Source: a virus
Length of the DNA stretch: 64,000 nucleotides
Reading direction: 5' to 3' (one strand)
IMG/VR virus record: IMGVR_UViG_3300025018_000004
Coordinates: 1 to 64,000 of that record
This document shows positions 502 to 7,479 of the stretch, one piece after another. Each line of letters begins with the position of its first letter. Position 1 is the first letter of the stretch. Both the position numbers and the translations under genes were made by a program. The notes under the pieces were generated by a model. It had not been told where the DNA came from. It did no database searches and saw nothing but the letters and a program-made list of their open reading frames with translations.

Positions 502-1014
502 TCAGACATAAAGAAGCTCGTTGAAGCGGTTCATAAAAACATTATATGCTTCCAATGGAGAATAGCATCGGATATTTACCCTTGGATGATCTTCTCCTTT
601 GCTCCACTCAGAGGGCTGCATCAAAAGTCTGGCCTCGATCTTGCACAGCTCTTTGTCCGCCAGATGTGTCTCTTTTGATTTCTGTAACGGAAGCTCAAAC
701 TTTTTTCTAACTACGGTTTCAAGTTTGTTTTCAATCTGCCTGTAATCAGGCAAGAGCGCTTTCAGCGGACTGGGGATATCTCCAACATACGCTTCTTGCG
801 CATCGTGTAAGAGAGCGTCCAGGGCATGAGAAGGGCTCACCATGAGGCTGCACCAGTATGAATGCTCTGCAACACTGTAGAACGACACTGTATGACCACC
901 AAAGCGACAGGTATTACTCAATGCATGAGCAATATCGTGAATGTTTATGCTCTCTGGTGTCGGGCATAGAAAATCAAGAAAGTTGCCGCTTTCAGTTTGA
1001 ATGGATGTGCTCAT
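502..1014 (-). CDS. HD-domain phosphohydrolase, YfbR-like 5'-deoxynucleotidase
   Basis: ORF track 502..1113, trimmed to ATG 1014..1012 (MSTSIQTESG...) because the extension overlaps a terminator hairpin. Motifs HDIAHALSNTCRFGGH, SVAEHS and LLHDAQEAYVGDIPSPLK fit the HD / YfbR pattern (H..HD..E..GD.P.P.K). Confidence 0.8.
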   Translation of the reverse strand: MSTSIQTESGNFLDFLCPTPESINIHDIAHALSNTCRFGGHTVSFYSVAEHSYWCSLMVSPSHALDALLHDAQEAYVGDIPSPLKALLPDYRQIENKLETVVRKKFELPLQKSKETHLADKELCKIEARLLMQPSEWSKGEDHPRVNIRCYSPLEAYNVFMNRFNELLYV

Positions 1015-1050
1015 GGTTGTTTTGAATTTGAGTGGTGGCTTGATTAGATG

Positions 1051-1089
1051 AAATAAAGAAGGCCCTGAAGTGGCAGCTCCAGGACCTTC
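1051..1089 (-). terminator. rho-independent terminator candidate after the tRNA/HNH cluster
   Basis: On the minus strand, GAAGGTCCTG (1089..1080) pairs with CAGGGCCTTC (1067..1058) as a 10-bp stem with one G-U and a 12-nt loop. It is followed by TTTATTT (1057..1051). Confidence 0.6.
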
Positions 1090-1133
1090 GTATATAACCC
1101 TCACTTCTGCCAAAGCTGTTCAAGGAGGGCTTG

Positions 1134-1169
1134 CAGTCTCAATAGGATTCGAACCTATGACCTGCGGGG
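1134..1169 (-). pseudogene. 3' fragment of a bisected tRNA (anticodon-stem 3' strand, variable loop, T-arm, acceptor 3' strand)
   Basis: The minus strand reads CCCCGC AGGTC ATAGG TTCGAAT CCTAT TGAGACT G. The T-loop is canonical. TGAGACT is the exact complement of AGTCTCA at 1728..1722. Confidence 0.55.
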
Positions 1170-1561
1170 TAGGTGAGTTGTAGCCTTCTTTGATACTTGC
1201 CGTTGCAAGACCTAGAACAGAATGTCTTATCTGTTGGTTTTACCAGGTGTGTTTGCCTTCTTTCTCTAGTAAAAGAGATCTTGCAATTGGGACATATTAA
1301 AGTTGCTAAAGTTCTACCTATAGATGCGTGCAATCTAGCATGATCCTGTTTGGTCATAATCTGAAGATTTTCACACCGATTATCGTGTTTGTCTTCATTG
1401 ATATGGTGTACCACTTCATTACAAGATAGTATTCGACCAATAGCATTTTCTGCTATGACTCTATGTTTTAAAACGTATCCGTGCTTATTAGCATTTGGAT
1501 GATCTGGAACTACGGCATATAAATAGTCACCCTTCTTGACAATCCTCTTTATCTTCCACAT
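1139..1561 (-). CDS. HNH homing endonuclease
   Basis: 140-aa ORF with an ATG start preceded by AAGGA. It carries the HNH core HHINEDKHDNRCENLQIMTKQDHARLH plus CPNC...CSRSC. Its last 12 codons (LTYPAGHRFESY) and TGA stop are encoded by the tRNA 3' fragment. Confidence 0.85.
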   Translation of the reverse strand: MWKIKRIVKKGDYLYAVVPDHPNANKHGYVLKHRVIAENAIGRILSCNEVVHHINEDKHDNRCENLQIMTKQDHARLHASIGRTLATLICPNCKISFTRERRQTHLVKPTDKTFCSRSCNGKYQRRLQLTYPAGHRFESY

Positions 1562-1688
1562 AATATTATCCTTTTATGCCCTAGTACCCCGTCAAGGAAT
1601 CGAACCCTGATTACGGGAGTAGAATTCCCGTGCCTTATCCAATTAGACGAACGAGGTATTTGGATAATATAAAGAAGATAGAGAAGAT
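1170..1688 (-). mobile_element. 519-bp insertion splitting a tRNA gene (carries tRNA-Arg and most of the HNH ORF)
   Basis: This is the interval between the two tRNA fragments, which have perfectly complementary acceptor strands. It contains a homing-endonuclease ORF. No flanking direct repeats were seen. Confidence 0.4.
1585..1657 (-). tRNA. tRNA-Arg (anticodon TCT)
   Basis: Hand-folded cloverleaf. Acceptor ACCTCGT/ACGGGGT (7 bp, one G-U). D-arm GTCT-AATTGGATA-AGGC. Anticodon arm CGGGA-ATTCTAC-TCCCG (U33, TCT, A37). Variable loop TAAT. T-arm CAGGG-TTCGATT-CCTTG. Discriminator A. Total 73 nt. Confidence 0.85.
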
Positions 1689-1728
1689 TTGCAAGCACCG
1701 CTGCTCTATCCAGCTGAGCTATGAGACT
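1689..1728 (-). pseudogene. 5' fragment of a bisected tRNA (acceptor 5' strand, D-arm, anticodon-stem 5' strand and a CTTGCAA loop)
   Basis: The minus strand reads AGTCTCA TA GCTC AGCTGGATA GAGC A GCGGTG CTTGCAA and then loses all tRNA character. No T-arm follows before tRNA-Arg. Confidence 0.55.
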
Positions 1729-1761
1729 GTTATTGAGTTGTCAAGGAATGCTTGACATCTG

Positions 1762-2125
1762 TGGACCTGGCGAGAGTCGAACTCGCGTCCAGATGTTGTT
1801 CAGTCAGAACTGACTACCATCCATTGATTAAGGTTCAATGGTAACCGAGGGACCGACCTAAGTCGACATCTCCACCACCTCATTCTTTAACGCGAGAATG
1901 AGGAAAAACGTCCTGTCTTTCCAGGCGTCGACGGATAATTGACACCAGCTGATCCCCTATCCGCGTCAGGGGCTGATGACTTCAGGCCGCTACCTTCTGG
2001 CTGCGGACGAAAGCGAGTGCATAATCGTTAGCACTTGTGGTTTCAACAGTTATTTTATAGGAGTCTGTTGACTCTCCCAGGTAGTGTTCATTCCGTTCTT
2101 CACCTGTCGAAACCGTGACAGGCCC
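1762..2125 (-). ncRNA. ssrA: tmRNA (SsrA), one-piece, about 364 nt
   Basis: 5' end GGGCCTGTCACGGTTTCGACAGGTG and 3' end GGACGCGAGTTCGACTCTCGCCAGGTCCA mirror, as I recall them, E. coli GGGGCUGAUUCUGGAUUCGACGGG and GGACGCGGGUUCAACUCCCGCCAGCUCCACCA. The acceptor GGGCCTG/CAGGTCC contains G3-U70. The internal tag ORF GCT AAC GAT TAT GCA CTC GCT TTC GTC CGC AGC CAG AAG GTA GCG GCC TGA encodes ANDYALAFVRSQKVAA*. Confidence 0.85.
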
Positions 2126-2129
2126 CACT

Positions 2130-2147
2130 CCTGGTCCGAAGACCAGG
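2130..2147 (-). other. stable hairpin with UUCG tetraloop immediately 5' of the tmRNA
   Basis: The minus strand reads CCTGGTC TTCG GACCAGG (7-bp perfect stem). It ends 4 nt upstream of the tmRNA 5' end and has no U-run, so it is more likely a processing or stability element than a terminator. Confidence 0.5.
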
Positions 2148-2154
2148 GTGTATT

Positions 2155-2373
2155 CTATGAATCTAGAGAATCAGCAAGTACGATGCTATTAAGCAAGAAG
2201 AGAGGACTCTTGTCTTGCGTTTCACATCTAAGATCACTGACTTTCACAGAGTCATAGGGTGCTAATACAAGCACTGTTGGCTGAGACGCCTCATCCGTGT
2301 CTAATTCAACTGTAAGGAGCAAGAGAAAAAGAATGATCACTAAAGCAATCACCCCAAAGAAAAGATTTTTCAT
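2155..2373 (-). CDS. small membrane/secreted protein (72 aa)
   Basis: ORF track 2155..2421, trimmed to ATG 2373 (MKNLFFGVIALVIILFLLLLTV..., a hydrophobic N-terminus) with GAGAG upstream. The longer version overlaps the upstream gene. Confidence 0.45.
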   Translation of the reverse strand: MKNLFFGVIALVIILFLLLLTVELDTDEASQPTVLVLAPYDSVKVSDLRCETQDKSPLFLLNSIVLADSLDS

Positions 2374-3011: not shown

Positions 3012-3076
3012 AGAAATAGTTCTCAGTTTGTTGAAAGAGTGAGTTTCAGACACATACAAAATGTGTACCTATCTGA

Positions 3077-5752: not shown

Positions 5753-6175
5753 GGTAGTGTGTTGATTAAATGGACAAACTTGACGGGATAACCGTCAATA
5801 TGGTGACTAACCAGACAATCTTGGCATAATGATTGTCTGATATGATGATACATAGCGATATTAGGGCTGATGCAATGGGCATCCCACCGACTTCCGTCGT
5901 AAATGACTGGTTGGATCAGGCAAAGAGGTCTTGATATCGGAGCTTGTGGTTTGTATTTCCCAGTTTCAGTCCCCCGCCACAAGTATGTGCCTGTTACTCG
6001 CTACCCAGCGTGAAAACGGCGGTGTCAAGAGATGGCTAAAGCCCCATCGATAGCCCGCACGGCAACAAAACTGGGTAGGGGGGAACGACCATCCCGTCCG
6101 ACCGTCCGCTCTCCCCCTCCTCATTGAATTGATGACCACGGAGACCAGCTTTCAACACTGGTCCCCGATGATCAT

Positions 6176-6385
6176 CTACCACATGACAGGAGGGACAACA
6201 AGAGATACATCAGACTGCCCAGATATGTAGACATGATATGTCTTGCATTCTGTACACTGAAGATGTGTTGACATCCCTTGCACAGGTCCAACATTAAACG
6301 AAGTACCCTTACAGCGGTGGCATGAGATATGTCGACGTGTAATCCATATCCAGACACGTCGTATCCAAACAACGTAGTCATTCAT
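6176..6385 (-). CDS. zinc-ribbon miniprotein (69 aa)
   Basis: ATG 6385 forms an ATGA overlap with the stop of the upstream 56-aa ORF. CHRC...CTEC supplies two CxxC pairs. Confidence 0.5.
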   Translation of the reverse strand: MNDYVVWIRRVWIWITRRHISCHRCKGTSFNVGPVQGMSTHLQCTECKTYHVYISGQSDVSLVVPPVMW

Positions 6386-6552
6386 GATTTAGTCCTCTTC
6401 GTCTTTTGACGTCGATGGGCCTTGTAGCATGAAGCGCGACAATATTTCTGCTCAGGATCAGGTCCCAATTTGAATCTTGTGCGACAATCTGGATTGTAAC
6501 AGTATCGATACCTCTCTGTCTTCAGGAGCTTTTGGATTTCATCATCAGTCAT
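6382..6552 (-). CDS. zinc-ribbon-like miniprotein (56 aa, below the ORF-track cutoff)
   Basis: My translation is MTDDEIQKLLKTERYRYCYNPDCRTRFKLGPDPEQKYCRASCYKAHRRQKTKRTKS*. GAGGAA lies 8 nt upstream of the ATG. It has CxxxC...CxxxC and a basic tail. Confidence 0.5.
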   Translation of the reverse strand: MTDDEIQKLLKTERYRYCYNPDCRTRFKLGPDPEQKYCRASCYKAHRRQKTKRTKS

Positions 6553-6727
6553 TGAGAATTCCTCATGCTATACAACAATCCTTCATGGACTGTTTAGTCA
6601 GAGGTCTCAAACTGTTATGAAATCTACTCGTTCCTGAATAGCTTATTGCCATCGAAGGGATATGTCCGCTTTTTGGCATCGGATGAACGCCAGGTGGGTA
6701 CATATCCCTTGATGACAATTGGTGTGG

Positions 6728-7027
6728 TTACCTTCTTCCACCAAAGAGCATTGCAGCCACATATGCCCACATGCGAGGCAAGAACCCACGATTCCTGCTT
6801 TCCTTTGCAGCAATCGAGTATGGGTTCGGTGACCGCTTCTCTTTCTTGGGTTTCGTGGAGAAGTTTTCAGCCATTCTGGACAAGAACGACAGCTTACGCC
6901 GCTTCTTAGTCTGTCTGGCCATTGCTTTCAGCTCCCACATATCATAATACGGAGCGCTCTCCTTCTTGGAGAATACAGTCCATGGGTTGACGCCTGCAGC
7001 TCGCAGAGTTCGATGTTGTCTTGACAT
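6728..7027 (-). CDS. hypothetical basic protein (99 aa)
   Basis: ORF track, ATG start, Lys/Arg-rich. No motif recognised. Confidence 0.45.
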   Translation of the reverse strand: MSRQHRTLRAAGVNPWTVFSKKESAPYYDMWELKAMARQTKKRRKLSFLSRMAENFSTKPKKEKRSPNPYSIAAKESRNRGFLPRMWAYVAAMLFGGRR

Positions 7028-7252
7028 GATGTCCTCGTGGTTTTGGACGATGGTGGTTAAATGGATCCCTCTTTATACTTGGCACGGTCACGGACAATAC
7101 CCTCAAGATCACTGTCACTGACCTTGACATCTCCTATCGCAACACAGTGTTCATAGTGTTGGTTTTTGAATGAGTGGCTAGCTTAACCTGCGTTTTTGTA
7201 AACCACCACTAGGGTAGCAGGACGTTCTCAGGTAGCCGTCGCAGGAGGAGTA

Positions 7253-7468
7253 TCAAACTACCAAGTCATCAGGATACTTCGTTGTGAGAGATCGATAATC
7301 GTCTCCAGCAGTCTCTCCACACTTGGGACAAACTATATTTGGAATGACGTTATCATGAAAGTTGCGATCATCATAACCATAGGCTTCATGAGTGTGACCA
7401 CAATGCTCACATTCATAAATGGCTTGGAAGTCGCGGCGAGTCTGAGAAAGGATCTTTTTGATATGCAT
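7253..7468 (-). CDS. zinc-ribbon protein (71 aa)
   Basis: CEHC...(26 aa)...CPKC supplies two CxxC pairs. ATG start. Confidence 0.7.
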   Translation of the reverse strand: MHIKKILSQTRRDFQAIYECEHCGHTHEAYGYDDRNFHDNVIPNIVCPKCGETAGDDYRSLTTKYPDDLVV

Positions 7469-7479
7469 GATGCACCTGC

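Follow-up and report, generated by a model that had tools for sequence, protein, structure and literature searches.

A predicted ribozyme-less homing-endonuclease cassette inside a split phage tRNA-Arg(UCU) gene, with a candidate replacement tRNA

We analysed a split transfer RNA (tRNA) gene in the IMG/VR virus record IMGVR_UViG_3300025018_000004, positions 1-64,000, and refer to this whole stretch of 64,000 nucleotides (nt) as the window. The contig is ~88 kb in total and belongs to a tailed phage, having genes for terminase, portal and major head. The two halves of the tRNA gene are separated by an insert that contains a promoter-like site, a complete tRNA-Arg, a Shine-Dalgarno sequence and an HNH endonuclease gene. 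Upstream lies a transfer-messenger RNA (tmRNA) gene and downstream an intrinsic terminator. The features of this locus, in the order of transcription and numbered by window position, are as follows.

1761..2125, minus strand: tmRNA gene (ARAGORN; Rfam tmRNA, 78.3 bits, E = 2e-30)
1693..1728, minus strand: 5′ half of the outer tRNA-Arg(UCU) (from the sequence and its identity to a tRNA on the metagenome contig L048)
1173..1692, minus strand: insert of 520 bp between U34 and C35 (junction set from the CTT|...|CTAA sites of relatives)
1666..1694, minus strand: sigma-70-like promoter match, TTGCAA-17-TATATT (consensus scan, 9/12)
1584..1657, minus strand: inner, intact tRNA-Arg(UCU) (ARAGORN; Rfam tRNA, 49.7 bits, E = 2.7e-9)
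1139..1561, minus strand: HNH_3 endonuclease open reading frame (ORF), 140 amino acids plus stop (Pfam HNH_3, E = 1.2e-12; PHROG HNH, 1e-21)
1134..1172, minus strand: 3′ half of the outer tRNA-Arg(UCU) (from the sequence, a partial Rfam tRNA match and blastn to L048)
1048..1089, minus strand: intrinsic terminator (terminator scan; 13-bp stem at 1089-1058, then a T-run)

From 1728 to 1689, the minus strand reads AGTCTCA-TA-GCTC-AGCTGGATA-GAGC-A-GCGGTG-CTTGCAA. We observed here an acceptor strand (1728-1722), U8 and A9, a D-arm (1719-1703, GCTC AGCTGGATA GAGC), A26, the 5′ strand of an anticodon stem (GCGGTG, 1701-1696, with one extra T at 1697) and a C-T-T read as C32, U33 and U34 (1695-1693). 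The 3′ half begins with C-T-A-C, which is read as C35, U36, A37 and C38 (1172-1169). From 1169 to 1134 it reads CCCCGC-AGGTC-ATAGG-TTCGAAT-CCTAT-TGAGACT-G, comprising the 3′ strand of the anticodon stem (CCCGC, 1168-1164), the variable loop AGGTC, a T-arm (1158-1142), the acceptor 3′ strand TGAGACT (1141-1135) and G73 at 1134. The acceptor strands AGTCTCA and TGAGACT are Watson-Crick complementary at 7/7 positions, and the stems distant from the insert show no mismatch (acceptor 7/7, D 4/4, T 5/5). The end coordinates of the two stretches, their sequences and the acceptor complementarity are all as given in a first-pass annotation of the window. Its placing of an intact tRNA-Arg and an HNH ORF between the halves agrees with the ARAGORN, Rfam and Pfam results listed above.

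A partial Rfam tRNA match (1134-1197, 20.8 bits) covers the 3′ half; the acceptor-like AGTATCA at 1197 that underlies this match (6/7 pairs) was judged to be a chance by-product. ARAGORN in its intron mode (0-1000 nt) did not recover the split gene. A scan of the window for tRNA arms found two D-arm motifs and three T-loop motifs; the only D-arm that lacks a T-arm is that of the 5′ half, and the only T-arm that lacks a D-arm is that of the 3′ half. In blastn, one uninterrupted tRNA-Arg(UCU) on contig L048 matches both halves, with 100% identity to 1702-1728 (E = 2e-7) and 91% identity to 1131-1163 (E = 2e-6), which amounts to 27/27 identical positions on the 5′ side of the anticodon arm and 27/30 on its 3′ side. 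The pairing of the two halves exceeds chance, and both derive from one tRNA gene.

The first-pass annotation had taken CTTGCAA as a canonical C-U-UGC-A-A anticodon loop, implying a tRNA with the anticodon UGC (Ala type) and a cloverleaf upon joining the halves around it. The letters are present and ARAGORN does fold this join, as tRNA-Ala(tgc), although the alanine determinants are absent. The fold requires an unusual anticodon stem of 6 bp with a T.C mismatch in place of the standard 5-bp stem. Moreover, G3:U70 is the major determinant for alanyl-tRNA synthetase, and in place of G3:U70 and A73 the acceptor stem carries U3:A70 and the discriminator G73. We scanned public metagenome contigs with the 26-mer GTCTCATAGCTCAGNNGGNNAGAGCA, which starts the 5′ body, and obtained at least 120 stretches, in 111 of which ARAGORN called a tRNA. 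Among the matches listed, these were Arg(tct) in 86 cases, Met(cat) in 21, Arg(cct), Ile and Asn in one each, and Ala in none. The implied alanine identity is therefore rejected, as the C-T-A-C ahead of the 3′ stem strand also argues, and CTTGCAA is probably not an anticodon loop at all; it consists of the CTT of the 5′ half and the first four bases of the insert (CTT|GCAA).

The C-T-A-C before the 3′ stem strand places the break at U34|C35, and so the insert is 1692..1173 (520 bp). Arginyl-tRNA synthetase recognizes A20 in the D-loop together with C35 and U36 in the anticodon; the D-loop AGCTGGATA has A20, and C35 and U36 are present. When the halves were joined at U34|C35 as they stand, the loop had 6 nt and ARAGORN returned tRNA-???(tc), while the same join minus T1697 gave tRNA-Arg(tct) and a clean RNAfold cloverleaf. 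Judged by these sequence features, the outer halves are those of a tRNA-Arg(UCU) gene of the bacterial 'GGATAGAGCA' type and not of a tRNA-Ala gene. In practice, the outer gene escapes tRNA finders, and these programs can mis-call junctions of this kind, as ARAGORN does with the first-pass join.

The HNH gene has its own ATG with a Shine-Dalgarno sequence, AAGGA, upstream. The conserved part of the protein ends at ..CNGKYQRRLQL, two codons ahead of a tRNA-derived tail. The last 11 codons (TYPAGHRFESY) are the junction and the old tRNA, ..PAGHRFESY* being encoded by the variable loop and the T-arm, and the stop TGA at 1141-1139 is the first triplet of the acceptor 3′ strand. Thus the ORF does run through the T-arm and stop where the acceptor 3′ strand opens, as had been described in the first-pass annotation. 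We found 73 relatives of the protein in a set of 5.8 billion proteins, the best having 64% identity, and these align only up to about residue 129. All 27 family-invariant residues are kept in the window's protein (27/27), including H52, H53, N61, N65, H74, H78 and four Cys, and on this basis the gene is judged to be intact. A sequence search of solved structures with this protein gave no significant match. Genes of more distant relatives lie 35-60 nt after tRNAs, inside tRNA arrays.

The left end of the insert reads GCAAATC... and its right end, ...CAACTCAC, lies within the HNH reading frame. The promoter-like site ends 8 nt ahead of the inner tRNA, and its -35 box, TTGCAA, straddles the left junction. 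At the equivalent place of another locus, L242, TTGCAA-17-TATAAT (with TG, 10/12) follows the CTT of a different outer half. The position and form of TTGCAA-17-TATATT are suggestive of a promoter for the inner tRNA and the HNH gene. A scan of viral sequences for the left junction (AGAGCA-N5-6-CTTGCAA-N15-19-TATAWT) gave seven matches, all of them chance matches in coding DNA. On the opposite strand, a strong sigma-70-like match (TTGACA-17-CATAAT, 11/12; 1536-1564, plus strand) lies antisense to the HNH start and is directed into the inner tRNA-Arg and the tmRNA.

The inner tRNA-Arg(UCU) is of a sequence type distinct from that of the outer gene (GTCTAATTGGATAAGGCA ... ATTCTAC). This type had 19 matches in viral contigs, none of which adjoins an HNH gene; the type is common rather than cassette-specific, and we discarded it as a marker of the cassette. 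AGA is the commonest arginine codon in 21 long ORFs of the window (187 of 690, 27%), and 11 of the 13 arginine codons of the HNH ORF are AGA or AGG. This heavy use of AGA is supporting evidence for the need of a spare tRNA-Arg.

To look for further interrupted genes, we scanned for a T-arm and acceptor strand with a perfect complement at most 2.5 kb upstream, the complement being followed by U8 and a D-arm. Split tRNAs were found to bracket homologous HNH genes in L012/L013, L015/L016, L140, L141, L143, L219/L220 and L254. Split pairs with a canonical D-arm occurred at 38.5 per Mb in the loci with full-length HNH relatives, and the same scan of control loci gave 0 per 1.5 Mb and 2.3 per Mb. 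The scan also flagged further candidates on the L222 contig (1550-2255, and other pairs) and one canonical-looking split pair among the control viral loci L223-L249. Interrupted tRNA genes may be more frequent in phage contigs than annotation implies.

Four of these loci, L012a, L015, L140 and L143, have the organization ..CTT|TAA(A/G)...GGAGC-ATG(HNH)...GNRA hairpin...AAG|CTAA.., and in 4/4 the deletion of an intron of 606-617 nt yields an ARAGORN tRNA-Arg(tct). Their HNH ORFs are homologous (55-57% identity for L012a and L015, ~50% for L140 and L143). The motifs GCTATATCGGnGAAT, CCGTAGAGACTAyACGC and AAGAnATAGTCCAG are present in 4/4 of the introns, each of which ends in G and follows an exon ending in U. 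In small-region searches, the Rfam model Intron_gpI matched L140 with 36.8 bits (E = 1e-7) and L012a with 30.4 bits (E = 8e-6). The ribozyme core overlaps a C-terminal extension of the ORF, in which the motif 'AISEN' is encoded by GCTATATCGGAGAAT; AISEN is found in at least 13 of the 73 HNH homologues. On L254, a contig binned into an Anaerolineae metagenome-assembled genome (MAG), the same 34|35 intron occurs in a tRNA-Arg(UCU) (1952-2455; Intron_gpI, 28 bits). Its HNH ORF is internally deleted and its ribozyme motifs are intact, so that by sequence it appears as the decayed-endonuclease stage of the homing cycle. The same HNH family occupies the same position of tRNA-Arg(UCU) genes in many phage contigs, either within group I introns or in nested cassettes that lack a ribozyme.

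L012 has two adjacent phage tRNA genes with group I introns and HNH ORFs (5949-6627 and 6784-7633), one of them being the tRNA-Arg(UCU) gene with its intron at 34|35. The second intron lies at position 36|37 of a tRNA-Met/Ile(CAU), carries a different HNH and scores 68.8 bits with Intron_gpI, above the gathering score. Similar splits of CAU tRNAs were seen on contigs binned into bacterial MAGs (L291, 1805-2660; L319, 1922-2750).

No such ribozyme was found in the window. With an Rfam search as permissive as that used for the relatives, Intron_gpI gave no match at E <= 10 in window positions 900-2300, and the group I core motifs AGAGACTAyACGC, ATAGTCCAG and GCTATATCGG were not found in the insert. 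The 5′ side ends in ..CTT, that is, in the U that group I introns require; the last base of the insert, however, is C1173 and not G, whereas the relatives end in ..AAG|. A group I intron in the window was rejected on these grounds, there being no core (P3-P9), no core motifs and no terminal G. A bulge-helix-bulge was not seen on inspection, as there is no partner for a 4-bp central helix and no TTGC near the 3′ end of the insert to pair with GCAA. The pairing of the insert ends (-11.6 kcal/mol) was reached by 7% of shuffles and is not significant. Since a ribozyme core, a terminal G and a bulge-helix-bulge are all missing, the outer tRNA is most likely dead.

The window's HNH protein belongs to a short class (128-140 amino acids) that lacks AISEN. 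In a neighbor-joining tree, most of the short, ribozyme-less HNHs, including that of the window, form one large clade apart from the intron clade. In all nine lineages of this clade that were examined, members are found either immediately downstream of a UCU tRNA or tRNA-like element or within a split tRNA-Arg; several are nested in the way seen in the window, and in two further cases the ORF likewise terminates on the 3′ part of the tRNA. Their arrangements, apart from that of the window, are given below in the order in which the parts occur.

L219 (P0003, 63%): 5′ half ..ACAGA TT, then a Shine-Dalgarno sequence with ATG (GGAG..ATG) and the ORF, which runs through the 3′ half
L219, last 12 codons: TCTAA TCAGA CGGTT GTAGG TTCGAGT CCTAC CTAGCAT, the stop TAG being in the acceptor strand
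L221 (P0002, 64%): 5′ fragment, canonical tRNA-Arg(tct), 29 nt, ORF; its stop TAG and the outer T-stem overlap
L222 and L242: 5′ half, D-arm-less UCU tRNA-like element, ORF, 3′ remnant
L141: 5′ half, ORF, D-arm-less UCU tRNA-like element, 3′ part
L250 and L251: tRNA-Arg(tct), then the ORF after 2-16 nt; an outer 5′ fragment survives in L250
L002-4: D-arm-less UCU tRNA-like element, 18 nt before the ORF

The halves of L219, when joined, give tRNA-Arg(tct). The outer tRNA sequences differ by locus, and the surviving D-arms are nearly all GGA(T/C)AGAGC(A/G), that of L242 being degenerate. The left junction can be read in four loci and falls at U34 or beside it (CTT| for the window and L242, TT| for L219, TCT| for L222). 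L141 has a single T beyond the stem strand, and the 5′ fragments of L221 and L250 stop within the D-arm. The anticodon stem beside the insert is imperfect in the window and L219, and missing in L141 and L221. This pattern of decay would fit a homing element, in which the flanks proximal to the donor travel and decay, and the distal flanks come from each invaded gene.

The D-arm-less tRNA-like elements (L242, 95-175; L222, ~2915-2990; L141, 2973-3048; L002, 4896-4980; also in L003 and L004) adjoin the short-class HNH genes and share an invariant CTTCTAA (UCU) loop together with an acceptor stem of 7 bp and a T-arm. Three of them encode CCA, and 12 of 16 pairs showed compensatory changes in RNAalifold. 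On visual inspection, a 3-bp helix apparently closes over the anticodon arm and is followed by a D-loop-like TAAyTGGA. These elements may be minimal, possibly cleavage-immune, replacement tRNA-Arg genes. L141 also has an element of ~115 nt (2330-2445), situated between a tRNA-Pro and the split tRNA-Arg, with a tRNA-like acceptor stem (GGGGTTG/CAACCCC), a T-arm, an encoded CCA and a large internal insert.

We consider it reasonably probable that a homing-endonuclease cassette lacking a ribozyme split the phage tRNA-Arg(UCU) gene, and that the inner tRNA-Arg replaces the dead outer gene. The first-pass annotation had offered 'a homing event that killed a tRNA' as one of two possibilities, which comes close to this explanation, the halves being those of one gene and the HNH of the homing type; the tRNA concerned, however, is Arg. 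In the proposed sequence of events, the phage originally would have had a lone tRNA-Arg(UCU) gene between the tmRNA gene and the terminator. A ribozyme-less cassette of ~520 bp, consisting of the promoter-like site, a complete tRNA-Arg(UCU) of another type, a ribosome-binding site and the HNH_3 gene, would then have been inserted between U34 and C35. In this way the 3′ end of the HNH gene would have become fused in frame to the old 3′ half, borrowing the TGA of the acceptor strand and the old terminator. Processing of the transcript would free the inner tRNA-Arg, which would read AGA in place of the destroyed gene, and the HNH protein would be translated off the same RNA. By analogy with the intron-borne relatives at the same site, the protein may cut uninterrupted tRNA-Arg(UCU) genes near the anticodon in co-infecting genomes, and the repair of the cut would copy the cassette into the target. 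The outer halves would never be rejoined; they would be what is left of the invaded target, of use at most for flanking homology and for providing the ORF tail and terminator.

Several observations weigh against this explanation. The join at 34|35 requires one surplus T (1697) to be explained away. The promoter match is 9/12, which is not significant by itself in a region where about two such matches are expected by chance, and the site is common only to the window and L242, the other lineages lacking it. Homology between the inner tRNAs of different lineages is not obvious, and the inner tRNA type of the window usually occurs without an HNH gene; a cassette that seems to carry its own tRNA could therefore reflect repeated co-location and not co-transfer. 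Most inner tRNAs keep the CTTCTAA loop of the targets, which leaves their immunity to cleavage unexplained. The neighbor-joining tree has no support values, and P0002, the best BLAST match, falls outside the short clade. The Rfam group I scores of the tRNA-Arg introns are below the gathering score of 50, although consistent across loci. The identical contig is present in three public assemblies, which may go back to one shared source sample and so may not be independent.

The close empty-site relative is also missing. A blastn 'distant' search of 50,697 phage records gave no match to the locus, and the exact 27-mer of the 5′ half was not found in IMG/VR. The sole syntenic relative, L001 (60% amino acid identity), has synteny that ends at window position 3059, and it lacks the tmRNA/tRNA block. 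The neighbouring HD-hydrolase has its best homologue (64%) in a different context, and no homologue was found for the upstream neighbour of 209 amino acids. As these routes gave no close relative with an empty site, the polarity of the insertion is deduced rather than observed.

An alternative that shares the insertion site with the proposed homing event is that a group I intron decayed in situ, the ribozyme having been lost in a deletion that ran from where the HNH core ends up to the 3′ splice site, and the promoter and inner tRNA having been acquired later in the 5′ part. The window's insertion site is that of the relatives' introns, and its ORF breaks exactly where the intron-borne homologues continue into ..HG.T...AISEN, which doubles as ribozyme core; the life cycle of homing endonucleases also predicts decay forms, L254 being the opposite case with the ORF deleted and the core intact. 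However, the window's HNH sits within a large, diversified short clade, all of whose members lack a ribozyme, which indicates that the loss of the ribozyme predates the window locus. In addition, the left end lacks the conserved intron start TAA(A/G)..GGAGC, and at least two further events would be needed, each ending precisely at a splice junction. We regard decay in situ as rather unlikely. It is more doubtful still that the outer tRNA frame has been kept for a role at the RNA level, as a scaffold around the HNH mRNA that recruits RNase P and 3′-end processing and protects the message, with no part in decoding; such a role would be compatible with a ribozyme-less homing cassette. In the minimum free energy fold of the 595-nt RNA, nt 1-7 are paired with 588-594 and the D- and T-arms are present, acceptor complementarity is kept in L221, L141 and L222 despite the lost anticodon arm, and the ORFs repeatedly end within the 3′ part of a tRNA. 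Against this, L250 and L251 are without the outer 3′ part or without any outer part, and L002-4 have no obvious outer halves on an inspection that was not a systematic search, so that the frame is dispensable; two 7-nt strands are also expected to persist after a recent insertion.

The other possibility raised in the first-pass annotation was a split tRNA that is somehow rejoined, be it by protein-dependent splicing, by RtcB- or Rnl-type ligation after RNase P/Z cuts, or by trans-assembly. The almost pristine halves, the frame that forms in silico and the recurrence of the architecture would be in keeping with it. It is very improbable in view of the missing group I core, terminal G and bulge-helix-bulge, and of the insert-end pairing, which is not significant. 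The tmRNA implies a bacterial host, and we know of no tRNA splicing endonuclease in bacteria; the intact inner tRNA-Arg(UCU) would make rejoining redundant, and the relatives lose the anticodon arm progressively. We give just as little credence to a one-off illegitimate insertion into a tRNA-Ala(UGC) gene with CUUGCAA as its true anticodon loop, as the ARAGORN call and the canonical form of the loop might suggest. Apart from the missing G3:U70 and A73, the mismatched 6-bp stem, the CTAC before the 3′ strand and the lack of any Ala among the 111 calls in the matches listed, CTT|GCAA is found again in L242, behind another outer half, and there forms a -35 box, and the architecture itself recurs in other contigs. 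Remnants of site-specific integration (att fragments) are hardly credible. Integration often targets tRNA-Arg(UCU) genes, and the anticodon-loop sublocation is used by some integrases; however, the pieces are complementary halves in 5′-then-3′ order with no duplicated 3′ part, the 520-bp insert encodes only a tRNA and an HNH and no integrase, and the contig is that of a tailed-phage genome.

Taking the window and its relatives together, we tentatively propose, with less than even confidence, a widespread and so far undescribed HNH homing lineage specific for the anticodon loop of tRNA-Arg(UCU), having a group I intron branch and a ribozyme-less 'kill-and-replace' branch that carries a promoter-driven tRNA-Arg(UCU). 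In some lineages the replacement may be a D-arm-less tRNA that is immune to cleavage. The enzyme might also cut argU-type genes of the host, thereby forcing dependence on the phage copy.

The closest known parallel in position is the intron of the tRNA-fMet gene that encodes I-Ssp6803I, a PD-(D/E)XK enzyme. As in the window, the endonuclease gene lies inside a tRNA anticodon loop and has its target, in the window a presumed one, in the anticodon region. The introns at 34|35 in L012a, L015, L140 and L143 are of this same kind of tRNA group I intron, whereas the window has no ribozyme, an HNH enzyme and a phage host; without a ribozyme, its tRNA would not be restorable by splicing. The tRNA-Leu(UAA) intron also shares position 34|35 with the window and its relatives. 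Phage T5 has HNH nickases in its tRNA cluster. SegB of phage T4 is a free-standing homing endonuclease in a phage tRNA cluster (PMC2330249). Like the window's HNH, the T4 SegB and T5 HNH genes are endonuclease genes with neither intron nor intein among phage tRNA genes, co-inherited with their neighbours. They lie between tRNA genes, however, while the window's HNH lies inside one, destroying it, and is accompanied by a second isoacceptor copy.

In 'fractured genes', a homing endonuclease gene is reported to split a host gene whose function is restored by split inteins (Dassa et al. 2009, PMC2677866). Both cases have a free-standing endonuclease gene between the halves of an interrupted gene, with no intron. 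Fractured genes rejoin at the protein level, whereas the halves in the window apparently do not rejoin and the loss would be covered by the spare gene in the insert. In Archaea, the split tRNAs of Nanoarchaeum and the tRNAs with bulge-helix-bulge introns have separated halves with complementary acceptor strands; in contrast to archaeal split tRNAs, the window lacks a bulge-helix-bulge and GC-rich complementary leaders, and the host is bacterial.

According to a review of 2014, all phage introns then known were in protein-coding genes, despite the many tRNA genes of phages (PMC3984707). In the open-access literature, which makes this weak evidence, we found no account of HNH genes or of group I introns that lie within phage tRNA genes. 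Nor did we find described there an endonuclease gene inside its presumed target tRNA gene with no splicing element and a second copy of the gene. To our knowledge, homing endonuclease genes are thought to persist in essential or useful genes only within a self-splicing intron or an intein. For a small RNA gene, this locus and those of its relatives point to a third solution, in which there is no splicing element and a spare copy of the gene is brought along. The comparison set also provides candidate group I introns in phage tRNA genes, and an HNH enzyme recognising a tRNA-Arg(UCU) gene would represent a new sequence specificity. As intron-borne, ORF-decayed and ribozyme-less stages exist side by side, the gain and loss of the intron-endonuclease partnership become directly testable.

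The tmRNA gene is directly upstream of the split tRNA-Arg, with 32 nt between it and the outer 5′ half, and encodes the tag ANDYALAFVRSQKVAA. The terminator begins 45 nt downstream of the 3′ end of the outer tRNA; presumably it formerly served the old tRNA and now ends the HNH transcript. Two other Rfam matches in this region were set aside as chance by-products: YrlA at 1675-1817 (24 bits; gathering score 69) covers the tmRNA T-arm and the outer D-arm, and ctRNA_pGA1 at 1046-1116 corresponds to the terminator hairpin. The 64 kb yielded no translation RNAs other than the tmRNA, the inner tRNA-Arg and an odd tRNA-like gene (8768-8844, minus strand). This gene has a perfect acceptor stem, D-arm and T-arm together with an aberrant anticodon hairpin, GACTC AAATGTTT GAGT, lacking U33, and ARAGORN gives it a 2-base 'anticodon' (tg). 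We take the gene for either a pseudo-tRNA or a tRNA whose loop is unusual.

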